Source: Verrucomicrobiota bacterium (GTDB lineage Bacteria; Verrucomicrobiota; Verrucomicrobiia; Limisphaerales; DSYF01). Taken from it: a DNA stretch of 63,455 bases. The translations under genes and the position numbers were made by a program. Shown here piece after piece: positions 47,532-58,483 of the stretch; position 1 is the stretch's first letter, and every line of letters begins with the position of its first letter. Below the pieces are notes generated by a model. That model saw nothing but the letters and a program-made list of their open reading frames with translations. It did not search any database and was not told the origin of the DNA. The stretch covers positions 1-63,455 of the forward strand of contig JBEGQI010000204.1 in NCBI GenBank assembly GCA_041181065.1. Reading direction: 5' to 3'.

Positions 47532-48299
47532 TTACTCCGGGCAGATGCGGCCGAATTGCGTGCGTTCCACCCAGCCGTGACCGAAGCTGGTGCGGATGAG
47601 GAGATAGTTGCCGCGCGAGCGTTCGATGCGGGCGGGCTCGCCGGCGTTGAGCATCGTCACGGTCTGCGCGTCGCGCGTCGGCGTCAGGCGCACCGGCGTG
47701 TTGGATTCCAGCACGAAGCCGATCTGCGCGCGGGAATTCACGCCGAGCATCGCGGGGATGCACATGAGGAAGACCGCCAAGCCAAGCGCGGCACACGCTT
47801 GCTGCCAACTGCGCCGCTTCCAGCGAAACACCGTCGGCAACATCACGAACGCCACCGCCATCCAGAAGCTGAAGCCCGCGAGCCACGCCCATGCGTTCAC
47901 GGGCAGCCACGTGGACGCGACCTCGTGCCACATCAATCGCGGCGCCTCGAGCTGCGCCACCTTGCGCGCGAAGGCGAGGTTTTCGCGCGCGGCTTCATTG
48001 GCCGGATCGACCCAGAGCGCGCGTTCCCAAGCGAGCACAGCAAAACCTTTCCGTCCGCGTTGCCATTCGGCGAGGCCGTAATTCTGGAACGCACCGCTCG
48101 AAGGCGCGCGCGCGGCATCCGAGGCGAAGGCGTGCGCCGCCCGGGCGTAATCGCCGCTGCGAAAGGCTGCTGCACCATTCGTGAACTCGCTGGCAAAAGC
48201 CGCGAAGCTGAACAGCATCAGCCAAAGGAGAACGCCAACCCGGAGACGCCCAACCCATGCGCTCGTCGTGGAATGCTTGGCGTGAAATTCAGGGCTCAC
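47532..48299 (-). CDS. BatE-like TPR/TM/SH3 protein
   Basis: TPR (F..G.Y..A, NYG, WERA...P, ARENL), TM helices, C-terminal GWV; GTG start overlaps the upstream TGA. Confidence 0.8.
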   Translation of the reverse strand: MSPEFHAKHSTTSAWVGRLRVGVLLWLMLFSFAAFASEFTNGAAAFRSGDYARAAHAFASDAARAPSSGAFQNYGLAEWQRGRKGFAVLAWERALWVDPANEAARENLAFARKVAQLEAPRLMWHEVASTWLPVNAWAWLAGFSFWMAVAFVMLPTVFRWKRRSWQQACAALGLAVFLMCIPAMLGVNSRAQIGFVLESNTPVRLTPTRDAQTVTMLNAGEPARIERSRGNYLLIRTSFGHGWVERTQFGRICPE

Positions 48300-50218
48300 A
48301 ACTTGGCCTCCAGTTGAGCGAGCACGCGGTCCAATTCGCCGCGCAACGCGAGCACATCCGTCGCGCCGGGCGGTTGACCCGCGAAGCGTTCGGCATCCGC
48401 GGCAGCGAAGATGCGCCGCACGGCCTGCGTTGCGTTCGTCGCGTCGGCTCCGTCCAGCAACGGCACCACGTCGCTGCTGACCAACGCGCGCGGCTCGGCG
48501 GGATAATGCGGAGCGCAGGCGGCCCGCATCGCGTTCACGGCACACGCGGCGAAGCGCGAGGTGTCGCCGAGCGCCGCTGCCTTGCGGACGGCGGCCCACT
48601 CGCGCCGCAACGCACGCCGGGCGCGACGACGCAGCATCACTTCGGGATGCGCTTCATGGAATCGCCGGCGCCGGTCCCACGCCCAAAGCGCAGCGAACAA
48701 CACTGCGGGCGCGACCTGCACGACCGGGAACCACGGCGCGCGTTGCACGGGCAGCAAGGTTGCCATCGACTTGCCCGGTTGCGCGGCGAGCCCGCTGAGC
48801 TTCGGTTCGCGCTCAGTTCCAGTTGCGGTTGCGTTCGTCGATGCAAACGCGGCGACATCCACGGGCGCAGCTCCGGGCGACACTTTCACCGGCACCGACG
48901 GCACGCTGGCGTCCACGTAGTCGCCTTTGTCCGGATCGAAGAAGCTGAATGGAATCCGCGGCGTGACTTTGTTGGTTTCGCTGGTGGGGATGAGCGTCCA
49001 TGAGAACGTCGTGAAGCCCTGCGCTTGGATGAGTTGTGGCGGCATGGCATCGACCGGTCCGGCGAACACTTGCCAGCCCGGAACCGTCGGCGGTTTGGGC
49101 GGCGTGAGTCGCAGCAGGTTGCCATCGCCGCGGACGCGGACCGACAACGTGACGGGCTCGCCGACGCGAAGGGCGTTCACGGCGAGCTGGGGCGGATCGA
49201 GTTTGAAATGACCGATGCCGCCGGTGTAGCCCGGCAGTTCGCGCTCGCGCGGCAACGGACGCACGTCGAGCGTGACGGGCTCGGAGTCGAGGAGAATCTG
49301 CGGTTGCGGCCCGCCGGGCAACGAGATGGTGCCCTGGATCGTGATGCCGCCACCGAGAAAGGCCGATTGCAGATTGCCCGTGAACGCCTGCGCGGAGACG
49401 TCGAGCTTGCCGGGCTTCAACGGCGTAAGGCTCGACTCGCAAACGACGGACGCATAGTTGCTGTTGTATTCGGGAAAGATCCGCATCTGCTGGCCCATGA
49501 ATTGGCCGGGGAGAAAGCCGTCACCGTTCAGCTTGAGCGAATTGAGGATGGTGATGCCCGAGGGCGCGCCCGGCTCCACGATGCGCACGTTCACGAGCTG
49601 ACCGACGAACGGATTTTTGTTCGGCACATCCAGGAGCAGATGTTTTCGCGGCAGCACGGGCGGGAGATTTTCCCCCACGACTTGTAGCGTCGCGGCTGGC
49701 ACGGTCACAGGCTTGTCGTAAACGTAAACGATGAAGCGCGGAACGGTGAACGAGCCCGTGTTGGTCACGGTAACGCGGTAGTTAAAACCAGCGCGCGGCT
49801 GCATCATCGCGCCGGTCTGCGCCATCGATTGCCCGCGCGCGCTTGGTCGCAAGTTGAGCTGCGGCGGCGCAATGACATCTTCCGGCCACTGGATGGAGTC
49901 AATGAGTGCGTTGAACGAGATGCGATACGTCGCCACGTCGCCCGCGCGGATGATCGGTGGATCGAACGAGGCGGTGGCTTCGACGGGCGTGGTGGTGTCG
50001 ATGCTCGGCTGCGGCGAAAGCATGATGGCCGCGGGATTGGGCTGCTGGGGTTGTTGGGCGGAGGCGCTGAAAATGAACAAGGCAACTAAAGCGCACCCGA
50101 GCGCCACCTTCTTAATCTTAATCACAATCTTACTCATCATCCACTGCTTCAACCCGCAGGGATTAAGATCAAGAGTAAGATTACGATTAAGAGAGAGTGA
50201 GGTCATTGTGCGCTTCAC
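48296..50218 (-). CDS. BatD-like protein
   Basis: V.PLP......GYTGGIG.F, VGEPVTL.V.V.G.GNL, FSFFDP..G.Y, late TM helix; GTG 50218 overlaps the upstream TGA (alternative ATG starts downstream). Confidence 0.82.
   Translation of the reverse strand: MKRTMTSLSLNRNLTLDLNPCGLKQWMMSKIVIKIKKVALGCALVALFIFSASAQQPQQPNPAAIMLSPQPSIDTTTPVEATASFDPPIIRAGDVATYRISFNALIDSIQWPEDVIAPPQLNLRPSARGQSMAQTGAMMQPRAGFNYRVTVTNTGSFTVPRFIVYVYDKPVTVPAATLQVVGENLPPVLPRKHLLLDVPNKNPFVGQLVNVRIVEPGAPSGITILNSLKLNGDGFLPGQFMGQQMRIFPEYNSNYASVVCESSLTPLKPGKLDVSAQAFTGNLQSAFLGGGITIQGTISLPGGPQPQILLDSEPVTLDVRPLPRERELPGYTGGIGHFKLDPPQLAVNALRVGEPVTLSVRVRGDGNLLRLTPPKPPTVPGWQVFAGPVDAMPPQLIQAQGFTTFSWTLIPTSETNKVTPRIPFSFFDPDKGDYVDASVPSVPVKVSPGAAPVDVAAFASTNATATGTEREPKLSGLAAQPGKSMATLLPVQRAPWFPVVQVAPAVLFAALWAWDRRRRFHEAHPEVMLRRRARRALRREWAAVRKAAALGDTSRFAACAVNAMRAACAPHYPAEPRALVSSDVVPLLDGADATNATQAVRRIFAAADAERFAGQPPGATDVLALRGELDRVLAQLEAKL
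50110..50192. repeat. Hexamer-periodic inverted repeat (ATCTTA/TAAGAT family) in the 5' end of the batD-like gene
   Basis: TCTTAATCTTAATCACAATCTTACTC...GATTAAGATCAAGAGTAAGATTACGATTAAGA; related copy at 58410-58483. Confidence 0.85.
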
Positions 50219-51222
50219 CAATTCGGACGCTTCGGATCCTTCGACTTGCCTTCTTCGCCCATGCCCATCGGCAGGCGCTTGTCGCCGTCGCGACGCAGCC
50301 CGTTCAGCAATTGCCCTGCTTCCTCAGCTGACATCTTCTTTTCTTCGCCCGCCTTGCCAGCCGACTCGGTCATCTCGGGGCGCATGCCGCCGGGTTCTTC
50401 TTCGTCCTCTTCCTCCTCGCCGTTGCCGCCGGGTGGCGCATCAGGCGCAGGGACCTGGCCCTTGAGCTGATTCAACTTGTCGCCGAGCTGCTTCCCGGCC
50501 TGCTGCATTGCGGCCATCGCCTGCTGCATCTCGCGGATCATGTCGATGAGCTTCGCGATGTGACGGTTCACGATGTCGGCGTTCTTCGCGGCATCCTTGT
50601 CCGCGGGGCTCAACTCCGCCGCGCTCTGAAAATCTCCCGCCGCGCGCTGCCATTTCAATAGCGTGTTGCCGCAAACCTCCATCGCGGCCTTCACCGCTTT
50701 GGTTGCGGACTTCAACTCCTTCTTCGCGCCGCGCCCGCGCTGATACGCGGCAACCATCTGCTGCACGTCATTGCTCACCAACGCCGCGTCCGCCGCCTGG
50801 CTCGCTTCATTGGCCTGCGCGGCGGCGCGTTGTCCACGGGCAGCAGCCTGCGCATGCTCGGCCTGCTTCTTCAACTCCTCGATGCCCTGCGCGAACCGGA
50901 CTTCCCCGAGATTGTAAAGCGCCTTGGGCTGCAATCCCTCATCCTGGCTGGCGAGCGCCGATTGCAGGAACGCCTCCGCTTCCCGCAGCTTGCCCGCCTG
51001 CAACATCCGCGTGCCGGCGTTAAAGAACTCGCGCGGCGTTTGCGGCGCCGGCTCGGGCTTCGTGGCGGGAACGTTTGTTCCCGGAAGCGCGACCGGCGTC
51101 TTATTCGTCGCAAGTGAAGCTGTGGCTGAATTCAAAATTAAAAATGAAAAATGAAAAAACAGACAGAGGCCGCGTGCCCGCGTCCGCCATTTTGCTTCTT
51201 GAATTTTTAACTTTGAATTCAT
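50215..51222 (-). CDS. BatC-like TPR protein
   Basis: FNAG...G.L.EA, ALYNLG, DA.KN, Gln/Glu-rich tail, MSAEEA.QLL, terminal NW. Confidence 0.8.
   Translation of the reverse strand: MNSKLKIQEAKWRTRARGLCLFFHFSFLILNSATASLATNKTPVALPGTNVPATKPEPAPQTPREFFNAGTRMLQAGKLREAEAFLQSALASQDEGLQPKALYNLGEVRFAQGIEELKKQAEHAQAAARGQRAAAQANEASQAADAALVSNDVQQMVAAYQRGRGAKKELKSATKAVKAAMEVCGNTLLKWQRAAGDFQSAAELSPADKDAAKNADIVNRHIAKLIDMIREMQQAMAAMQQAGKQLGDKLNQLKGQVPAPDAPPGGNGEEEEDEEEPGGMRPEMTESAGKAGEEKKMSAEEAGQLLNGLRRDGDKRLPMGMGEEGKSKDPKRPNW
51127..51221. repeat. AT-rich heptamer-periodic inverted repeat in the 5' end of the batC-like gene
   Basis: TGAATTCAAAATTAAAAAT versus reverse complement of the other arm TGAATTCAAAGTTAAAAAT (one mismatch). 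Confidence 0.85.
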
Positions 51223-52232
51223 GGCTTACGCCTCGTCCCCACGAGCGACTCCACCACGACCAGCAACAGCACGGCAGCGACCGACCAGTGAAACCGATCC
51301 ACGCCGCGTTTGATGGCGCCGGTGGCACTGGTGGCGAGCTGCGATTCGATCGCGCCGCGCACGCGGGCCAAGCCCTCGCCGAGCGGCCCGAGCGGATGAT
51401 ACGCGCCCTTCGTGGCGCCCGCCACTGCGCGCAACGTCGCTTCATCAAGCTGGCTGCGCACGACTTCGCCCTTGCTGTCGCGCAGGAGCGTCAGCTGACC
51501 TTGCTCGTTCAACACGCGGATCTCCGTTCCTGCCGGTGTGCCGACGCCAACGGTGAATACGACCACGCCGTTCGTCGCGAGCGCTTCGGCTTTTTTCACG
51601 CCGCCTTTTTCCAGATCTTCGCCGTCGGTCAGCAACACGATGATTTTGCGCTTCGCCTTTTTGTCCATCGCGCGATACGCCTCGTCGAGTGCGCGACCAA
51701 TATCCGTGCCGGGGACGGGAATGGTCCGCTCGTCGAGCGCGTTCAACGTTTCGTGGAATGCCTCGTGGTCCGGCGTGAGCGGGCATTGCAGGAACGCCTG
51801 CCCCGCGAACGCCACCAAGCCGAGGCGTCCCGAGTTGTGGTGCCGCGTGAATTCCTGGATCGCGAGTTTCGCGCGTTGCAACCGGTTCGGCGTCACGTCG
51901 GCGGCGAGCATGCTGCGCGAGCAATCGAGCGCGAACACCACGTCCTCGCCCGCGAGCTGCGTCTCGCGTTGCTGCTCCTCGCCCCATTGCGGCCGCGCCA
52001 ACGCCAGCCCGATGCCGCCCACGGCCAGCACGAGCAACACTTCCTTGAACACGCGCCGCGCCGGGCTGTGCGAACGTGTGAGTTCCGCGACGAACTCCGG
52101 CGCCGCTACGCGCGACAACTGCCGTCGGCGCATCGCCGCCGAGTAACGTTGCAAAGCAACGAGCGCCAGCGGCCCGAGGAACGCGAGCCACAGCCAGGCA
52201 GGTTCGGCAAAATGGGGATTGGCAAAACTCAC
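51219..52232 (-). CDS. BatB-like VWA protein
   Basis: ALARPQWG, DCSRSMLA.DV.PNRL, FAGQAF..CPLT.D, LTDGED; GTG start. Confidence 0.9.
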   Translation of the reverse strand: MSFANPHFAEPAWLWLAFLGPLALVALQRYSAAMRRRQLSRVAAPEFVAELTRSHSPARRVFKEVLLVLAVGGIGLALARPQWGEEQQRETQLAGEDVVFALDCSRSMLAADVTPNRLQRAKLAIQEFTRHHNSGRLGLVAFAGQAFLQCPLTPDHEAFHETLNALDERTIPVPGTDIGRALDEAYRAMDKKAKRKIIVLLTDGEDLEKGGVKKAEALATNGVVVFTVGVGTPAGTEIRVLNEQGQLTLLRDSKGEVVRSQLDEATLRAVAGATKGAYHPLGPLGEGLARVRGAIESQLATSATGAIKRGVDRFHWSVAAVLLLVVVESLVGTRRKP

Positions 52233-53269
52233 GGCACCCTCCGATAACGTGTGTTCGCCAGCACGAGTTCCAACGCAAGCAATCCGAGCGCCGCGCAGAG
52301 CGGCCATTGGAACAACGGCGTGTAAGTCGTGAAGCGCCGCAGCTTGATCTCCGTTTTCTCCAGCCGGTTGATGTCGTTGTAGATCTCCTGCAACTGGCTG
52401 CGGTTCGACGCGCGATACGAGCGCGCGTGCGACAACGCGGACATCTTCGCCAGCACGTCGTAGTTCGCGGGCTGGATGGTCATCGAGGGGATGATGTTGC
52501 CCGCCTCGTCGAGGATGAGTTTGCCGGTGTTCGCATCGAAGTAAGGCAGGCGGCATGGTTGATCCACGCCGATGCCGATGGTGTAAACCTTCACGCCCAC
52601 GGCGGCGGCGAGTTGCGCGGACGGCACGGGATCGACCTCGCCTTTGTTGTTGTCACCGTCGGTCAACATGATGATGACGCGGCTCTTGCTCTCCTTCTGA
52701 TCCTTCAACCGCTTCGTGGCGGAGACCGTCGCGTCGCCGATGGCCGTGCCGACTTCGATCACGGAACCGACATGCAAACGGTGCAAGTTCTCGACGAGCC
52801 AGTCGTGGTTCAACGTCAGCGGGCTGCACAGATACGGCACGCCGGAGAACGCGATCAACCCGATGCGATCATCCGGGCGTTTGCGGATGAAATCCTCCAG
52901 CACGCTGCGCGCGATGTCATAACGCGTCGTGCGTTCGCCGGGCTTGGCCATGTCCAGCGCGATCATCGACCACGACAAATCCACGACGAGCATGATGTCG
53001 ATGCCGCTGGTGTTCGTCTCCGTTTGGTCATTCGCAAAGCGCGGTCCCGCCAACGCCACGATGAGGAAGGCCACCGTCAGCAAGCGCAGGAAGAGCAACA
53101 GGCGTCCCGCGGCTGCGCGAGCCGTGGCGCCGGCTGCGCGAGCGATGTCCGCGCTGGAGAACAGAACCGCCGACAACTTCCCGACCCGTCCGCGCAGGAA
53201 CGCATACACCGGCAGCAACGCCAGCAGCGCGAGCAGGAACGGATATTGGAACTGGAAGTGTTCGGTCAT
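52229..53269 (-). CDS. BatA-like VWA protein
   Basis: GIDIML.VDLS.SM, DRIGLIAFSG, GTAIGD, LTDGDNN, I..LEKT. Confidence 0.9.
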   Translation of the reverse strand: MTEHFQFQYPFLLALLALLPVYAFLRGRVGKLSAVLFSSADIARAAGATARAAAGRLLLFLRLLTVAFLIVALAGPRFANDQTETNTSGIDIMLVVDLSWSMIALDMAKPGERTTRYDIARSVLEDFIRKRPDDRIGLIAFSGVPYLCSPLTLNHDWLVENLHRLHVGSVIEVGTAIGDATVSATKRLKDQKESKSRVIIMLTDGDNNKGEVDPVPSAQLAAAVGVKVYTIGIGVDQPCRLPYFDANTGKLILDEAGNIIPSMTIQPANYDVLAKMSALSHARSYRASNRSQLQEIYNDINRLEKTEIKLRRFTTYTPLFQWPLCAALGLLALELVLANTRYRRVP

Positions 53270-53883
53270 GCGGGCTTCAGCGCTTGTGCTTGCTCGCGAA
53301 GTTTGGCGCGGCGGGCTTCAGCCAGTTCAACCAGGGCCAGCGCGCGGCTCGCGGCGCTAAGCGGAGTGGTGTTGGTCGTGGGCGCAAACTTTCGTTCGTC
53401 ACAGCTGTGCAAGAATTCTGCGAGCTTGGCGGAGAGTTCAGGGTCGATTTGCGGATGAGCATTGATCGCGGCGCAGAACTCAGCCGTGTTCATCTCGCCC
53501 GATGGCAGCGCGAACGCCGCTGCCACGTAGCGCCGTAGCGTTTGCGAAATGCGGCTGAGCACGTCGCCGGTCTCGGGCAGCGTGGCGAGCCGGGCGAGTT
53601 CGTTGCGGGCGATGACTTCGGGCGGCGTGGTCACCTTGGGCTTCGGGCGCAACACCAGCCAGAGCAGCGCACCGATCGCCGCAAGCGCCACGAACCCGAG
53701 GACGATGATCAGCGCCGCATGCTGTTCCCAAAATGTCGGCTGGATTTCCGGCAACGGCGGCGACAGCGGTGGGATTTCGTCGGCGGGCTTTGATGACGGC
53801 AGGGCAAAAGCGGCGGGCGCGAGCAGCAGTGAGAAAGCCGCGAACCGCAGTCGCCAATCGCCAATCGCCGGAATCGAATTCAC
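53266..53883 (-). CDS. Bat-operon membrane protein (DUF4381-like)
   Basis: Signal peptide, Pro-rich segment, TM helix, LRRY...F, E.NT.EF, D..KFA. Confidence 0.75.
   Translation of the reverse strand: MNSIPAIGDWRLRFAAFSLLLAPAAFALPSSKPADEIPPLSPPLPEIQPTFWEQHAALIIVLGFVALAAIGALLWLVLRPKPKVTTPPEVIARNELARLATLPETGDVLSRISQTLRRYVAAAFALPSGEMNTAEFCAAINAHPQIDPELSAKLAEFLHSCDERKFAPTTNTTPLSAASRALALVELAEARRAKLREQAQALKPA
53851..53869. repeat. Short heptamer tandem repeat (TCGCCAA) in the 5' coding end
   Basis: TCGCCAA-TCGCCAA-TCGCC, read within AIGDWRLR on the minus strand. Confidence 0.45.
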
Positions 53884-54836
53884 CCGCGCCTCCTGCCTTT
53901 GCGGGTTTCAAAAAAGCGCTGGAGGGTTTGCGCGAAGGAATCGGCGGTGTTGAAGCGCAACGTCTCGACGCCAGCACGGTTCAAAGCGCGGTCTAAGTCG
54001 GCGAGGCGATTCGCGTTGGTGCGCGCAAAGCGTTCGCGCACGGCGGCGCTGGCGGAATCCAGTTCGAGCAATTCGCCGGTCTCGGCGTCCTCAATGGTGA
54101 GCAAGCCGGCGACGGGCAACGAATCTTCGCGCGGATCGTGCAGGTGCAGGCAGACGAGGTCGTGACGGGCGTTGGTGAGGCCGAGTTCCTGGATGACGTC
54201 GCGGTTTGTAGTCCCGCCTTTAGGCGGTTCGGCAGACGCGGACCGCCTGAAGGCGGGACTACGAACGGATTCAAAACTGTGCAGAAAATCCGTCATCAGG
54301 AACGTGATCGAGCGGCGTTTGACGACGTGGTTCACGAAGTTCAGCGCGGCGGGGATGTTTGTGCCCTTGTGCTTTGGCTCGAACGCGAGCATTTCGCGGA
54401 GCACGCGCAGAATGTGACGCCGTCCTTTGCGCGGCGGGAGATAAAGTTCAACCTCATCCGTGAACAGGAGCAGGCCAACTTTGTCGCTGCTGCGCGAGGC
54501 GGAGATGGCGAGGGTGGCGGCGATCTCGGTGGCGAATTCGCGTTTCGTCCGGCGCAGCGAGCCGAACGCGGACGACGCTGAGATGTCCACGGCGAGCACG
54601 ACGGCGAGTTCGCGTTCCTCGCGGTAACGCTTCACGAACGGGCGGCCCATGCGATTGGTGACGTTCCAATCGATGCTGCGCACGTCGTCGCCGGGCATGT
54701 ATTCGCGCAACTCCTCGAAGTCCATGCCGCGGCCCTTGAAGCGGCTGAGGTAGGCGCCCACCATCGTGTCGTTCACGAGACGGTTGGTGCGCACCTCGAC
54801 GCGACGGACGGTGGCGAGGAGTTCGGAGAGGTTCAT
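53880..54836 (-). CDS. DUF58 protein (MoxR/Bat-associated)
   Basis: S.FKGRGMDFEELREY.PGDDVR.IDWNVT, VDISAS, DKVGL, TDF, HD. Confidence 0.93.
   Translation of the reverse strand: MNLSELLATVRRVEVRTNRLVNDTMVGAYLSRFKGRGMDFEELREYMPGDDVRSIDWNVTNRMGRPFVKRYREERELAVVLAVDISASSAFGSLRRTKREFATEIAATLAISASRSSDKVGLLLFTDEVELYLPPRKGRRHILRVLREMLAFEPKHKGTNIPAALNFVNHVVKRRSITFLMTDFLHSFESVRSPAFRRSASAEPPKGGTTNRDVIQELGLTNARHDLVCLHLHDPREDSLPVAGLLTIEDAETGELLELDSASAAVRERFARTNANRLADLDRALNRAGVETLRFNTADSFAQTLQRFFETRKGRRRG
54204..54266. repeat. GTAG-type REP doublet inserted in frame in the DUF58 gene
   Basis: GTTTGTAGTCCCGCCTTTAGGCGGT...ACCGCCTGAAGGCGGGACTACGAAC; 63 bp = 21 codons. Confidence 0.9.
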
Positions 54837-55027
54837 GGCTTGCCGACGCGCAGTGGGGCAGTCTTCAAGACTGCCATTAGGGGCTTCCAGCCCTCGTTGA
54901 TGCGGCTGAAATCCTCACCTGCTTGGAAACACGCTCGCGGGCTAGAAGCCCGCCCAGACAGGCTTGAAGCCTGCCCCACTAGGCAACATTGGCGCTCGCC
55001 TTCCGACTTCGGATTGAACAGTTCCAT
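54833..55027 (-). CDS. Possible 64-aa repeat-derived ORF bridging the GH35 gene and DUF58
   Basis: ATG 7 nt after the GH35 stop; its TGA overlaps the DUF58 ATG; mostly REP sequence. Confidence 0.3.
   Translation of the reverse strand: MELFNPKSEGERQCCLVGQASSLSGRASSPRACFQAGEDFSRINEGWKPLMAVLKTAPLRVGKP
54852..54980. repeat. GTGG-type REP/REPIN-like composite palindrome
   Basis: AGTGGGGCAGTCTTCAAGACTGCC...GACAGGCTTGAAGCCTGCCCCACT, with inner hairpins GGGCTTCCAGCCC and GCGGGCTAGAAGCCCGC. Confidence 0.88.
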
Positions 55028-55034
55028 GCGGACG

Positions 55035-57449
55035 TTACTTGGTGACCAAGCCATCTCCCACGTAAACCTTGTAATCCTTGATGCGGCCGCCGCCCTGGCC
55101 TTGGCGCGGGGTGTAGCGGAAGCCGCCGACTTCGCGGGACTGGCCGAGGTCGAGGATGAGGCGGTGCGGGTGGTTCGGCTTCTTGTCGCTCCACTCGGTG
55201 TGCCAGAAGTTGGCGGTCTGGCCGTCAATCGCGTTCTCGGCGGTGCCGTCTTCCTTCGCGCGCTCCTCGCTGTCCACGTAGGCGATGGTCCAGCCTTCGT
55301 GGCTGAGCGGCTTGCCGTCGGCGTCGAGCAGTTCGAGTTCGGCGATGGCGGCGTAGGGTTGGCCGTCCTGTGCGCTCAACGACTCGAAGCAGAAGTAACG
55401 ACCTTTCGCCCCGGCGTTGAGTTTCACCTCCATTTGCGCCGCGCCGGGGATGAACGAAGAGGCCAGCGTGGCTTGAGCGGAATCGAGACGCAACTTCACC
55501 TCGGAGCGGCGAGAGCGGGCGAAATCTTTTTCCGGATGAAGCTCGTCGAGAATCGGGTGGTCGAGCGCGGCGATGACCGGAGCACCAGGAATGTAAAGCG
55601 AAAGCGCAGTCCCGCCCTTGTTTTCCAGCCCTCGACCCTCGGTTTGCCACTCTGGGCCGATCAGATCGAGAATAACTACCTCGTTCTTACCGTTCTTCAG
55701 CCACGCACCTGGGATATACATTGTCTGTTGCGGGCCGATGTTCCAATAGCGGCCGAGATTGTGGCCGTTGACCCACGCGTAGCCTTTGCCCCACGGGCGC
55801 ATGTCGAGCCACGTGTCGCCGGGCTTATCAATGCTCACCGTGGCGCGATAGAATGCCGGAGTGTTCGAGAACAACCCGCCCCGATAGCTCAACTTGGCGA
55901 GCATCTTTTCATCCAAAGGCAGCTTGTAGATGTTCCAGTTGGTTAGGGTTTCAGTGCTCTTTGCACTGGTGAACTTGATCGGTCCTTCGAGGCCTTTTCG
56001 GTCGTGCACCTCCGTGCCGAAATTCACGCGTCCCATCGCTTCAACGAGAATTCCTGCGGAGTGAATGATAGGATCGTATGCGAGTCGGTATTTGGGCAAT
56101 CGCACTTTGTAGTTCCGGTTCCTGCGGTCCATGACTCCAACACGCGCTCCGTCAAAATACACGTATCCAACATCTTTTACGTCAGATGCTTCAAGGACGC
56201 CTTCGCTCTTTGGGTAGGATTTCAACTGGTAAAGCACCAGACCGAAGGCCTGGTCGTATTGCTCGAAGTTCCGCGGCTGCACATCCGTGACGGGCTCCGG
56301 CAGATTCATGAACAGCGGAGCAAACTCCTTTACGAACACCGGCGGAATCGAGATCACCGGATTCTTCGCAGGCGGTTCGGGAATGGTTTCGCCGGGGAGC
56401 AGGTATTTCCGGAACAGCTCGCGCGTCTTGAAGAATTTGTCCGTCGTCCAGCCGGCTTCGCTGATGGGCGCGTCGTAGTCGTAGCTCGACGTGTCGGGCT
56501 TGAAGGGCCGGTCCGCACCGCTCCAGAAGCCGAAGCTCGTCCCGCCGTGCGCCATGTAGATGCTGAACGACGCGCCGCTCTTGAGCATGTATTCGAGGTC
56601 TTTCAGGTATTGATCGGTCTTGCCGAGATGATGCGGCGAGCCCCAGGTGTCGAACCAGCCGGGATAGAATTCACCGCACATGAGCGGGCCTTGCGGGAGG
56701 ATTTCGCGCAGCGCCTTGAAACCCGCAACGGGATCGGAGCCAAAGTTCACGACGGGGAACAGGTCTTTGCGGTAGCCGTTCTTGAGCGCGTAAGGCGGAT
56801 TGCACGCGAAGAGCGGCACGTCGAAGCCGGCGTCGATCATCGTCTGCCGGAGTTCGCCCATGTATTCGGCGTCCTTGCCATAGAAGCCGTATTCGTTCTC
56901 GACTTGGACCATGAGGATGGGGCCGCCTTTGGTGACTTGCAACGGGCCGAGCACGCGGCCGACTTCCTTGAGGTAACGCTTCGCGGCGTCGAGATAGCGC
57001 GGATCGCGGGTGCGGAGCTTGATGTCGTCTTGCTTGAGGAGCCACCACGGGAGGCCGCCCATCTCCCATTCAGCGCATGCGTAAGGGCCGGGGCGGAGCA
57101 TGACCCACAAGCCTTCCTCCTGCGCGATGCGGCAGAACTCCGCAGCGTCGGCCTGGCCGGACCAGTTGAATTCGCCGGGGCGCGGCTCGTGGAGGTTCCA
57201 GAAGAGATAGGCGCAAACGGTGTTCAAGCCCATGGCCTTGGCCATCTGCAAACGGTGGCGCCAATATTCTTTCGGCACGCGCGGCGCGTGGACTTCACCG
57301 CAGCGGATCTGGAAGCGCTGGCCGTCGAGGAGGAAATCATTCGTGCCGATGGCGAAGGTGTGCGCTGGCTTCGCGGGCGCGGCGGGTTGTGCGGCACACG
57401 CGGTGAAGGAAGCGAGGGCGACACAAGCGAAAAGAGCTTTCAGGCGCAT
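55035..57449 (-). CDS. GH35 beta-galactosidase with C-terminal F5/8 type C (CBM32-like) domain
   Basis: AMGLNTV..Y.FWN.HEP, LRPGPY.CAEWE.GG, QVENEYG, EFYPGWF, YMAHGGT.FG, SYDYDAPI; NAIDG...FWHT, YTPRQ. Confidence 0.93.
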   Translation of the reverse strand: MRLKALFACVALASFTACAAQPAAPAKPAHTFAIGTNDFLLDGQRFQIRCGEVHAPRVPKEYWRHRLQMAKAMGLNTVCAYLFWNLHEPRPGEFNWSGQADAAEFCRIAQEEGLWVMLRPGPYACAEWEMGGLPWWLLKQDDIKLRTRDPRYLDAAKRYLKEVGRVLGPLQVTKGGPILMVQVENEYGFYGKDAEYMGELRQTMIDAGFDVPLFACNPPYALKNGYRKDLFPVVNFGSDPVAGFKALREILPQGPLMCGEFYPGWFDTWGSPHHLGKTDQYLKDLEYMLKSGASFSIYMAHGGTSFGFWSGADRPFKPDTSSYDYDAPISEAGWTTDKFFKTRELFRKYLLPGETIPEPPAKNPVISIPPVFVKEFAPLFMNLPEPVTDVQPRNFEQYDQAFGLVLYQLKSYPKSEGVLEASDVKDVGYVYFDGARVGVMDRRNRNYKVRLPKYRLAYDPIIHSAGILVEAMGRVNFGTEVHDRKGLEGPIKFTSAKSTETLTNWNIYKLPLDEKMLAKLSYRGGLFSNTPAFYRATVSIDKPGDTWLDMRPWGKGYAWVNGHNLGRYWNIGPQQTMYIPGAWLKNGKNEVVILDLIGPEWQTEGRGLENKGGTALSLYIPGAPVIAALDHPILDELHPEKDFARSRRSEVKLRLDSAQATLASSFIPGAAQMEVKLNAGAKGRYFCFESLSAQDGQPYAAIAELELLDADGKPLSHEGWTIAYVDSEERAKEDGTAENAIDGQTANFWHTEWSDKKPNHPHRLILDLGQSREVGGFRYTPRQGQGGGRIKDYKVYVGDGLVTK

Positions 57450-57656: not shown

Positions 57657-58415
57657 GTGACGACATCTGAAGCCATCCAGTTGCTCGAGAAGTTCCGCGC
57701 GGGCAAGGCCAGTCGCGACGCGGTGCTGCAAGCCTTCCAAGCCGCGCCGGTGGCCAATCTCGGCTTTGCCTCCGTCGACACCCACCGCGCGCTGCGCAGC
57801 GGTTTTCCCGAGGTCATCTTCGGCGCCGGCAAAACGCCCGAGCAAGTCGCGAAGATCGCCGCGAAGCTCGTCGAGAAGAACGGCCGTGTGCTCATCACGC
57901 GCGTCACCGCTGAACACGCCAAGGCGGTTCGCAGAAAATTCAAACACGCCGTCCATCATGAGATGGGCCGTTGCATCACGATTGAGAAGAAGCCGCTCAC
58001 GAAACGTCCCGGCACGGTGGCCGTGATCTGCGCGGGCACGAGCGATTTGCCCGTCGCCGAGGAAGCCGCGCTCACCGCAGAGATCATGGGCAACCGCGTC
58101 GAGCGCATCTGGGATGTCGGCGTGGCGGGGTTGCATCGGTTGCTTGCCCGGCTCGAAACCATCCAGCGCGCGAACGTGCTCGTGGTCGTTGCTGGCATGG
58201 AAGGTGCGTTGCCAAGTGTAGTGGCGGGCCTCGTCGCGAAGCCGGTCATCGCCGTGCCGACGAGCATCGGTTACGGCGCGAGCTTCGGCGGATTGGCCGC
58301 GTTGCTCGGCATGTTGAACAGTTGCGGCAGCGGCGTGACGGTGGTGAACATCGACAACGGTTTCGGCGCCGGTTACGCGGCGAGCCAGATCAATGCGTTA
58401 GCGGCCAGTTCTTAA
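57657..58415 (+). CDS. larB: Nickel-pincer cofactor biosynthesis protein LarB
   Basis: D.HR..R.GFPEV.FG.GK, AGTSDLPVAEEA, DVGVAGLHR, AGMEGALPS, PTS.GYG, VVNIDNGFGA. Confidence 0.93.
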   Translation: MTTSEAIQLLEKFRAGKASRDAVLQAFQAAPVANLGFASVDTHRALRSGFPEVIFGAGKTPEQVAKIAAKLVEKNGRVLITRVTAEHAKAVRRKFKHAVHHEMGRCITIEKKPLTKRPGTVAVICAGTSDLPVAEEAALTAEIMGNRVERIWDVGVAGLHRLLARLETIQRANVLVVVAGMEGALPSVVAGLVAKPVIAVPTSIGYGASFGGLAALLGMLNSCGSGVTVVNIDNGFGAGYAASQINALAASS

Positions 58416-58483
58416 TCGTAATCATAATCTTACTCTTAATCTCCCCACCAAAAGGGGATTAAGATTACGAGTAAGATTAAGAG
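58410..58483. repeat. Hexamer-periodic inverted repeat (ATCTTA/TAAGAT family) between larB and larC
   Basis: TCTTAATCGTAATCATAATCTTACTCTTAATC-...-GATTAAGATTACGAGTAAGATTAAGAG. Confidence 0.88.

Follow-up and report, generated by a model that had tools for sequence, protein, structure and literature searches.

The minus strand of positions 47532-55027 in a 63,455-nt stretch of Verrucomicrobiota DNA (contig JBEGQI010000204.1, assembly GCA_041181065.1; the whole stretch is referred to as the window) carries a seven-gene bat-type operon, which runs from a DUF58 gene (53880-54836) to a last gene at 47532-48299, with repeats of four families inside its reading frames and a fifth family immediately upstream. 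In 72 orthologous operons (12, plus 60 from 65 further genomes; 73 with the window) the same spots were occupied by unrelated repeats or by none. The loop of the DUF58 protein and the starts of the predicted exported Bat proteins are therefore likely to be swappable slots, which mobile repeats have refilled repeatedly and on which the proteins probably depend. The genes are linked by six RTGA overlaps. An earlier, sequence-only reading had claimed that all junctions from DUF58 to batE are 4-nt stop-start overlaps, and this was confirmed: those at 53880-83 (GTGA), 53266-69 (ATGA), 52229-32 (GTGA), 51219-22 (ATGA), 50215-18 (GTGA) and 48296-99 (GTGA) each open a frame that runs to the following stop. 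Genes and repeats, among the latter repetitive extragenic palindromes (REPs), are located as follows.

53880..54836, minus strand: DUF58/von Willebrand factor type A (vWA) protein, 318 aa, Pfam PF01882 with E 4e-72; residues ~191-211 come from the GTAG REP dimer
53266..53883, minus strand: g2, orphan membrane or exported protein, 205 aa; the GTG of the overlap is the sole in-frame start before codon 44
52229..53269, minus strand: BatA, N-terminal anchor and VWA domain (PF07584, PF13519); repeat-free, internal control
51219..52232, minus strand: BatB-like VWA protein (PF13519); repeat-free, internal control
50215..51222, minus strand: BatC-position protein, 335 aa, no Pfam or NCBIfam match; residues 1-32 repeat-encoded
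48296..50218, minus strand: BatD, at most 640 aa, start uncertain (PF13584)
47532..48299, minus strand: BatE-position protein, weak TPR and SH3 matches; repeat-free in the window
54852..54980, no strand assigned: compound REP hairpin of the GTGG type, intergenic and separated by 16 nt from the DUF58 ATG downstream; arms 78% complementary, folding z -6.0
54204..54266, no strand assigned: GTAG REP dimer, 63 nt, in frame in DUF58; arms 89% complementary, z -7.1
53848..53869, minus strand: single heptamer arm GGCGATT x3 (TCGCCAA run) in g2, encoding PAIGDWRL within the predicted n-region (the N-terminal part of a signal peptide)
51127..51221, no strand assigned: heptamer inverted repeat of the AAAATKC class at the BatB/BatC junction; 81%, z -5.6
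50110..50192, no strand assigned: hexamer inverted repeat CTTAAT/ATTAAG in BatD, arms 50116-50141 and 50167-50192; 85%, z -4.7

Pfam supports the assignments of the DUF58/VWA protein, BatA, the second VWA protein and BatD; the names BatB, BatC and BatE are tentative and follow gene order.

The DUF58 loop could be scored in 67 of the 73 operons (four lacked the gene in the fetched stretch and two were cut by contig ends). It measured 26-31 aa, the ancestral length, in 36 of them and 35-85 aa, always in frame, in the other 31. A palindrome score of at least 10 was reached by 16 of the 31 extended loops vs none of the 36 of ancestral length, and the 22 long loops that were sorted by eye fell into about eight families. 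On the BatA tree, the filled or empty state of the loop required 7 changes vs 22.5 after shuffling, with none of 500 shuffles as low, whereas the commonest family (CCCTC) required 9 changes for its 10 rows vs 7.6 after shuffling. Filled status tracks the tree and occupant identity does not. Loci L012 and L047, with batA 95% identical at the nucleotide level, have unrelated occupants, L007, L025 and L030 have three different ones, and the occupant in the window differs from those of all three of its nearest kin. Matches to the CCCTC family numbered 0, 10, 11, 79 and 322 in five genomes with an empty loop vs 2-19 in five with a filled loop, four of these being filled by this very family, so that supply does not explain occupancy. 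Filling was accompanied by a shorter native linker: the median number of non-repeat linker residues was 6.3 aa in 25 filled loops vs 11 aa in the 36 empty ones, and the DUF58 protein of the window keeps three such residues (FES), compared with 7-12 aa in the empty orthologues (n = 36).

In an AlphaFold2 model built from 53 sequences (mean predicted local distance difference test score, pLDDT, 73; an earlier 8-sequence model, at 48.6, was too weak for use), the DUF58 core was confident and the insert at residues 191-211, between helices 184-192 and 214-225, scored below 50. Residues D84, S86, S88, T159 and D183 were invariant across the 53 sequences, and the insert begins 8 residues past D183. 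We take these five residues to be the metal ion-dependent adhesion site (MIDAS) motif, with D183 as its last residue. A sequence search for a relative with a solved structure returned none.

At the gene junctions, the repeat-bearing cases separated by the kind of gene that follows. At g2, BatC, BatD and BatE, 47 of 48 cases had a start ahead of the repeat from which the frame was open, vs 3 of 16 at BatA and BatB; a stricter rule that demanded ATG or GTG near the upstream stop gave 45 of 48 and 1 of 16. In these counts 11 operons feed both classes and kin are not independent. No later start past the repeat was available in 36 of 48 signal-peptide genes vs 1 of 16 BatA/BatB cases, and BatA and BatB retain their own start downstream of the element. 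Occupants were diverse here too, the 14 arrays of g2 belonging to 12 unit classes, and at the BatE junction repeats were present in 5 of 48 orthologues. Since 7 is coprime with 3, a heptamer array reads as one heptapeptide in every frame. The A-rich arm, which reads as polar or basic, leads in 26 of 29 heptamer inverted repeats, and the second arm is more hydrophobic. A strand-specific YRR motif as the feature that fixes arm orientation was dropped, since both strands carry YRR, and orientation was measured instead.

As candidate Sec signal features, these positions show hydropathy windows of 2.1-3.1 and K/R-rich n-regions. In the window, the left arm of the BatC inverted repeat contains the stop codon of BatB, overlaps with the start of BatC and codes for a Lys-rich n-region; the right arm (51133-51159) encodes FFHFSFLIL, the sole hydrophobic window of the predicted signal peptide, the best value beyond the repeat being 0.69 vs 2.1. 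Besides the overlap start, BatC has just a TTG at the end of this hydrophobic region (h-region). L002, from the same genus, has a heptamer inverted repeat with equal loop length at the same BatC position. A leader similar to the repeat-made ones of the window and L002 is present in L014 BatC (MNEKSKISNVKW...HAVFFVLNS), where the DNA palindrome has largely decayed (inverted-repeat score 9); it is possibly an older, domesticated case. BatD has several in-frame starts (50218, 50206, 50152, 50140, 50137, 50125 and 50107), so the right arm of the hexamer repeat alone is firmly coding. It encodes MMSKIVIKIKK immediately before the native h-region, and its units ATGATG and ATTGTG are unique to this copy.

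The sequence-only reading had proposed that several families insert at gene junctions and in tolerant loops and are co-opted as protein sequence, and it named downstream starts, single-copy sequences and the same peptides without palindromic DNA as evidence to the contrary. Insertion at junctions and in a tolerant loop is upheld by the orthologous operons, which at the repeat sites hold other DNA and not the same peptide. None of the three kinds of contrary evidence was found for DUF58 and BatC. For g2 there is no in-frame start past the repeat and orthologues differ; its repeat family is low-copy. For BatD a GTG exists just past the repeat, at 50107, but a start there would leave no basic n-region. 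Co-option holds in the structural sense that the linker or h-region now consists of repeat sequence; it does not extend to a particular conserved repeat or peptide, occupants turning over even at 95% batA identity.

The palindromic nature of the in-frame families, another part of that reading, needs one correction. Four repeats do lie in open frames and the window holds four hairpins with predicted energies of -36 to -79 kcal/mol; the TCGCCAA run, with a folding z of +1.05, is a three-unit arm without a hairpin and is not palindromic. The GTGG REP placed at the operon head is present, and lies outside coding sequence. In the host genome (3.97 Mb, 93% complete), where locations inside or outside genes were called by a purpose-built dicodon gene model, four of the five families are multicopy; the fifth, the TCGCCAA run, is low-copy, its 4 pattern matches including just 2 further plausible copies. 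Of the 25 loci of the GTAG family, 14 lie in open frames within predicted genes, where the dimers read as VVPPxGG...PPKGGTT and related peptides. The GTGG type has 7 loci, 4 within genes; of the 17 hexamer loci the BatD copy alone is within a gene, as is the BatC copy alone among the 3 loci of the full AAAATKC inverted repeat. Heptamer arrays numbered 42 vs 1 and 0 in two shuffled genomes, 27 within predicted genes and 22 of them internal. In-frame colonization is therefore genome-wide.

The element at 54204-54266 fits a GTAG-type REP in being a multicopy, GTAG-tagged short palindrome arranged as an inverted dimer, and departs from it in that the family, with 14 of 25 loci within genes, is not predominantly extragenic in this genome. 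Elsewhere, just 8 of 67 GTAG dimers have 300 nt of open frame on both sides. The exact GTAG pattern occurs in 21 of 121 genomes of the order and in at least 122 stretches across several phyla. Compared with a miniature inverted-repeat transposable element, inverted repeats are present; the orthologues are 75-79% identical at the nucleotide level and hold other occupants, and because they are too diverged and otherwise occupied, they offer no clean empty site for calling a target duplication. Contigs from two runs of one sample, which may be where the window itself comes from, match the window and contain no empty allele or informative joint; they are not independent evidence. The operon holds 5 repeat sites in 7.5 kb vs 0.17 expected, the maximum of the genome, a value that is partly post hoc in that three of the four detectors were derived from these same elements. 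The hexamer inverted repeat recurs at window positions 58411-58481, where it overlaps the stop of an ORF that ends at 58415 and leaves 11 nt to the following start.

Genes that may mobilize such repeats were found beside repeats of the same build. At L141 a gene resembling REP-associated tyrosine transposases (RAYTs; NF047646, 67.5 bits against a cut-off of 80) lies between dimers of the kind seen at the operon head (GTGG/GTAGGGCAGG family). The host genome has 2 Y1_Tnp matches, neither flanked by REPs of the window, and two further RAYT-like genes missed by Pfam (G000:C340:355-675 and G000:C206:1999-2307), each flanked by its own GTAGGG-type palindromes; for one host RAYT-like gene the flanking GTAGGG family is also the occupant of the DUF58 loop of four relatives. 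There are also 2 four-helix-bundle and 4 GxxExxY genes in the host genome, whose flanks, as judged by eye, carry inverted arrays of 7-9-mers with other unit classes, and 6-8-mer arrays occurred at 23 of the 30 best four-helix-bundle loci in relatives. No cognate RAYT for the GTAGTCCCGCC family was found beside the 2 host Y1_Tnp matches, at 30 + 13 further loci or at 87 repeat loci, and a 1.25-kb gap between REP clusters at L133 contains no RAYT-like ORF. No cassette built on the AAAATKC or hexamer unit of the window was found, either among the host genes, in a genome that is 93% complete, or among the 30 four-helix-bundle loci, none of which had these repeats in its flanks. No DUF559 gene was found in the host genome. 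As side observations, one GxxExxY gene with 9-mer inverted arrays (G000:C87:4457-4804) has on either side a copy of the first ~55 nt of a DUF58 paralogue, resembling a long target duplication, and a four-helix-bundle protein (L098:1501-1809, G000:C193) matched weakly, at E 1.8e-4 and far below the cut-off, the model of the diversity-generating retroelement protein Avd (NF033474).

The same alternation was seen at sites outside the operon. Four were surveyed, all chosen for an insert in the host genome, whose copy is included in the counts. The linker of arginyl-tRNA synthetase (ArgRS; L371-L400) carried different-looking heptamer repeats in 10 of 30 orthologues without any gain in length (median 90 vs 90 nt), homoserine dehydrogenase (L315-L344) had different repeats at one site in 6 of 29, alanyl-tRNA synthetase (AlaRS; L285-L312) had repeats in 8 of 28, added onto a 5-aa loop, and a fourth gene had them, by detector, in 2 of 18. 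With swapping in ArgRS, AlaRS and homoserine dehydrogenase as well, the pattern is not special to the bat operon.

The order of events that we favor, with somewhat better than even confidence, is recurrent insertion near stops and in variable loops, purifying selection for frame and export, trimming of the native segment, and displacement of the occupant. The families are multicopy, and the RAYT-like, four-helix-bundle and GxxExxY proteins whose genes are flanked by repeats of the same build may be what mobilizes them. The beginning of a heptamer element is mostly no more than ~20 nt from the upstream stop, and at an RTGA overlap this position is just past the start of the following gene. They are in frame at the signal-peptide genes and outside the protein at BatA and BatB, a pattern that purifying selection may have caused. 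By its sequence, an empty 7-mer cassette, with the A-rich arm usually in front, spells a polar or basic and then a hydrophobic stretch and so resembles a signal peptide. Once the old linker or h-region had been trimmed, clean loss would be harmful and the slot would be inherited, with newcomers inserting in or beside the old repeat and displacing it. This explanation implies no function specific to a family. Mobilization, translation, dependence and stacking are what we infer from these patterns.

Several points weigh against slot refilling. Scores were obtained for 347 of 438 junctions, the other 91 being missing (56), fused or misassigned (16), without the anchor motif (16) or too long (3); several of the unscored g2 rows likewise bear in-frame repeats. 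At most of 14 fused or misassigned junctions (L007, L011, L012 and other loci) BatB and BatC lie within a single ORF. The BatA tree was a quick tree with support from the Shimodaira-Hasegawa-like approximate likelihood ratio test only, family labels were assigned by eye, and kin are not independent. A clear inverted repeat is missing in 6 of the 31 filled loops, several of the 9-nt arms used in the linker measurement may be chance matches, and some filled loops retain 9-13 non-repeat residues. The 8-aa linker of L067, sister to a filled loop, suggests that the slot can revert. Signal peptides were called by hydropathy alone, and translation of the repeats is read off the DNA; for 9 of 48 cases (among them BatC of the window, L007 BatD and L072 g2) most of the best hydrophobic window is repeat-encoded, and windows of this kind reach lower values (median 2.1, n = 9) than those without a repeat (2.6, n = 159). 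Junctions with two families numbered 9 of 235 vs 0 in controls with a noisy motif library (33 single hits in controls), which makes direct support for stacked elements thin and at most suggestive. In AlaRS the repeats add length instead of replacing a segment. Finally, no cognate mobilizer for the GTAG, hexamer and AAAATKC families of the window was found in the searched loci.

Other explanations were weighed on the same data; published accounts given by PMC number were available in part, and statements about them refer to those parts. Repeats may simply have inserted independently and survived in frame wherever a site was tolerant, with neither dependence nor a preference for filled sites. 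In favor of this, 36 of 67 DUF58 orthologues and most junctions are repeat-free, 22 heptamer arrays and 14 GTAG copies lie within unrelated genes of the host genome, the AlaRS inserts merely lengthen a loop, and intragenic REPs have been read as neutral linker insertions (Di Nocera 2013, PMC3733652). We consider this explanation rather unlikely, in view of the clustering of filled status but not of occupant identity on the tree, the loops filled in genomes with 2-19 copies and empty in one with 322, the shortened ancestral linker and the lack of any other h-region in BatC of the window. Annotation error is the least probable account: true starts would lie downstream and the N-terminal repeats would be untranslated, as is the case at 15 of 16 BatA/BatB junctions, as the GTG at 50107 would permit for BatD, and as a published caution about REPs at 5' ends advises (Di Nocera 2013, PMC3733652). 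It is contradicted by g2, which has no other ATG, GTG or TTG before codon 44, by BatC with just its TTG at the h-region end, by open frames in 47 of 48 cases, and by the DUF58 insert, which is internal.

An mRNA hairpin at these positions could also be the selected trait, acting in translational coupling, processing or stoichiometry, and any palindrome would then serve. The four hairpins of the window and the unique BatD substitutions, which remain paired in the predicted fold, are compatible with this, as are the interchangeable heptamer classes of stem P6b in the Nostoc trnL intron, which have been read so (PMC4476775), and the clustering of Beggiatoa heptamers before start codons (PMC4679880). 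A selected hairpin is nevertheless very unlikely, given that many occupants, including those of g2 in the window and the ArgRS arrays, are single arms without a hairpin, that arm complementarity has decayed (15 of 31 filled loops score below 10), and that about half of the orthologues hold nothing. Exchange of occupants among lineages by homologous recombination in the conserved flanks, without new insertion, appears less probable still. Small-segment replacement is common in bacteria (PMC2884548), near-identical CCCTC inserts occur on distant branches (L012, L014, L030 and L065), and L012 and L047 differ at synonymous sites just upstream of the loop; each of the ~8 families would still have needed one entry into the loop, the pattern recurs in four unlinked genes, and where checked the families of the occupants are present elsewhere in the host genomes.

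Slot refilling has parallels in known systems. GTAG/CGTC intragenic REPs are most numerous in Opitutus terrae, also of the Verrucomicrobia, where, as in the window, in-frame GTAG-tagged dimers supply 20-30 aa in presumed loops (Di Nocera 2013, PMC3733652). Those insertions are described genome by genome, whereas a site refilled across orthologues with loss of the native linker is described here; the terms DUF58, von Willebrand and BatD are absent from the four text supplements of that paper. Rickettsia palindromic elements are likewise in-frame palindromes in unrelated genes and a proposed source of protein sequence, but measure ~105-150 bp, compared with 20-280 nt here (PMC10969869, PMC3184786), where fixed sites are taken in turn by many families, some of them non-palindromic heptamer arms; the 63-bp internal element of the window resembles them in the way it works only. 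In the Nostoc trnL intron one heptamer class has been replaced repeatedly and independently by another at a fixed position, that slot being a stem of non-coding RNA with two classes, unlike the slots found here, which encode protein linkers or signal peptides and have taken up 8-12 or more classes of several repeat types (PMC4476775). Beggiatoaceae and Geobacter also have 7-mer arrays before starts and in genes and four-unit elements within and between genes, and the available parts of those accounts do not connect the arrays with four-helix-bundle genes, signal peptides or replacement at given sites (PMC4679880, PMC2700814).

The four-helix-bundle (PF05635/TIGR02436) and GxxExxY (PF13366) cassettes resemble the junction elements in their inverted 7-9-mer arrays with the purine-rich arm first and share some unit classes with them (AAAGTCC, AGGTTGC and AACACTG); the elements of the window differ in being gene-less. 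A 2008 paper by Elhai, reportedly about small dispersed repeats, is probably a close precedent. Searches for literature on occupant swapping in protein slots, on four-helix-bundle or GxxExxY repeat cassettes and on repeat-made signal peptides returned nothing, subscription papers being mostly outside their reach. In-frame REPs have been described before in Opitutus and Rickettsia, as has the replacement of heptamers in the stem of an intron; for the swapping of occupants in protein slots we found no paper.

Upstream of the operon, a GH35 beta-galactosidase gene (window 55035-57443) directly precedes DUF58. A rough MoxR C-terminal motif was absent upstream here and present upstream in 43 of 63 loci with sufficient flank.

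In-frame palindromes are usually seen as one-off tolerated accidents, whereas here unrelated families repeatedly refill the same protein positions, in some cases after the native linker or the core of the signal has disappeared. The operons form a natural many-allele series for asking whether small bacterial repeats make functional protein and how REP-like and heptamer repeats pick their targets, and the contrast of signal-peptide genes with BatA and BatB within one operon is a built-in control that makes export and deletion tests straightforward. In this order the repeats confound start calls and loop alignments. A further idea, which we regard as quite unlikely, is that the rewriting is genome-wide, with RAYT HUH nucleases and four-helix-bundle proteins of weak similarity to Avd targeting sites that already contain repeats and overwriting linkers and signal peptides with new units, length being roughly kept. 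If true, such a process would amount to a continual supply of ready-made export signals and loop variants, one of them just past the metal-site Asp of DUF58.

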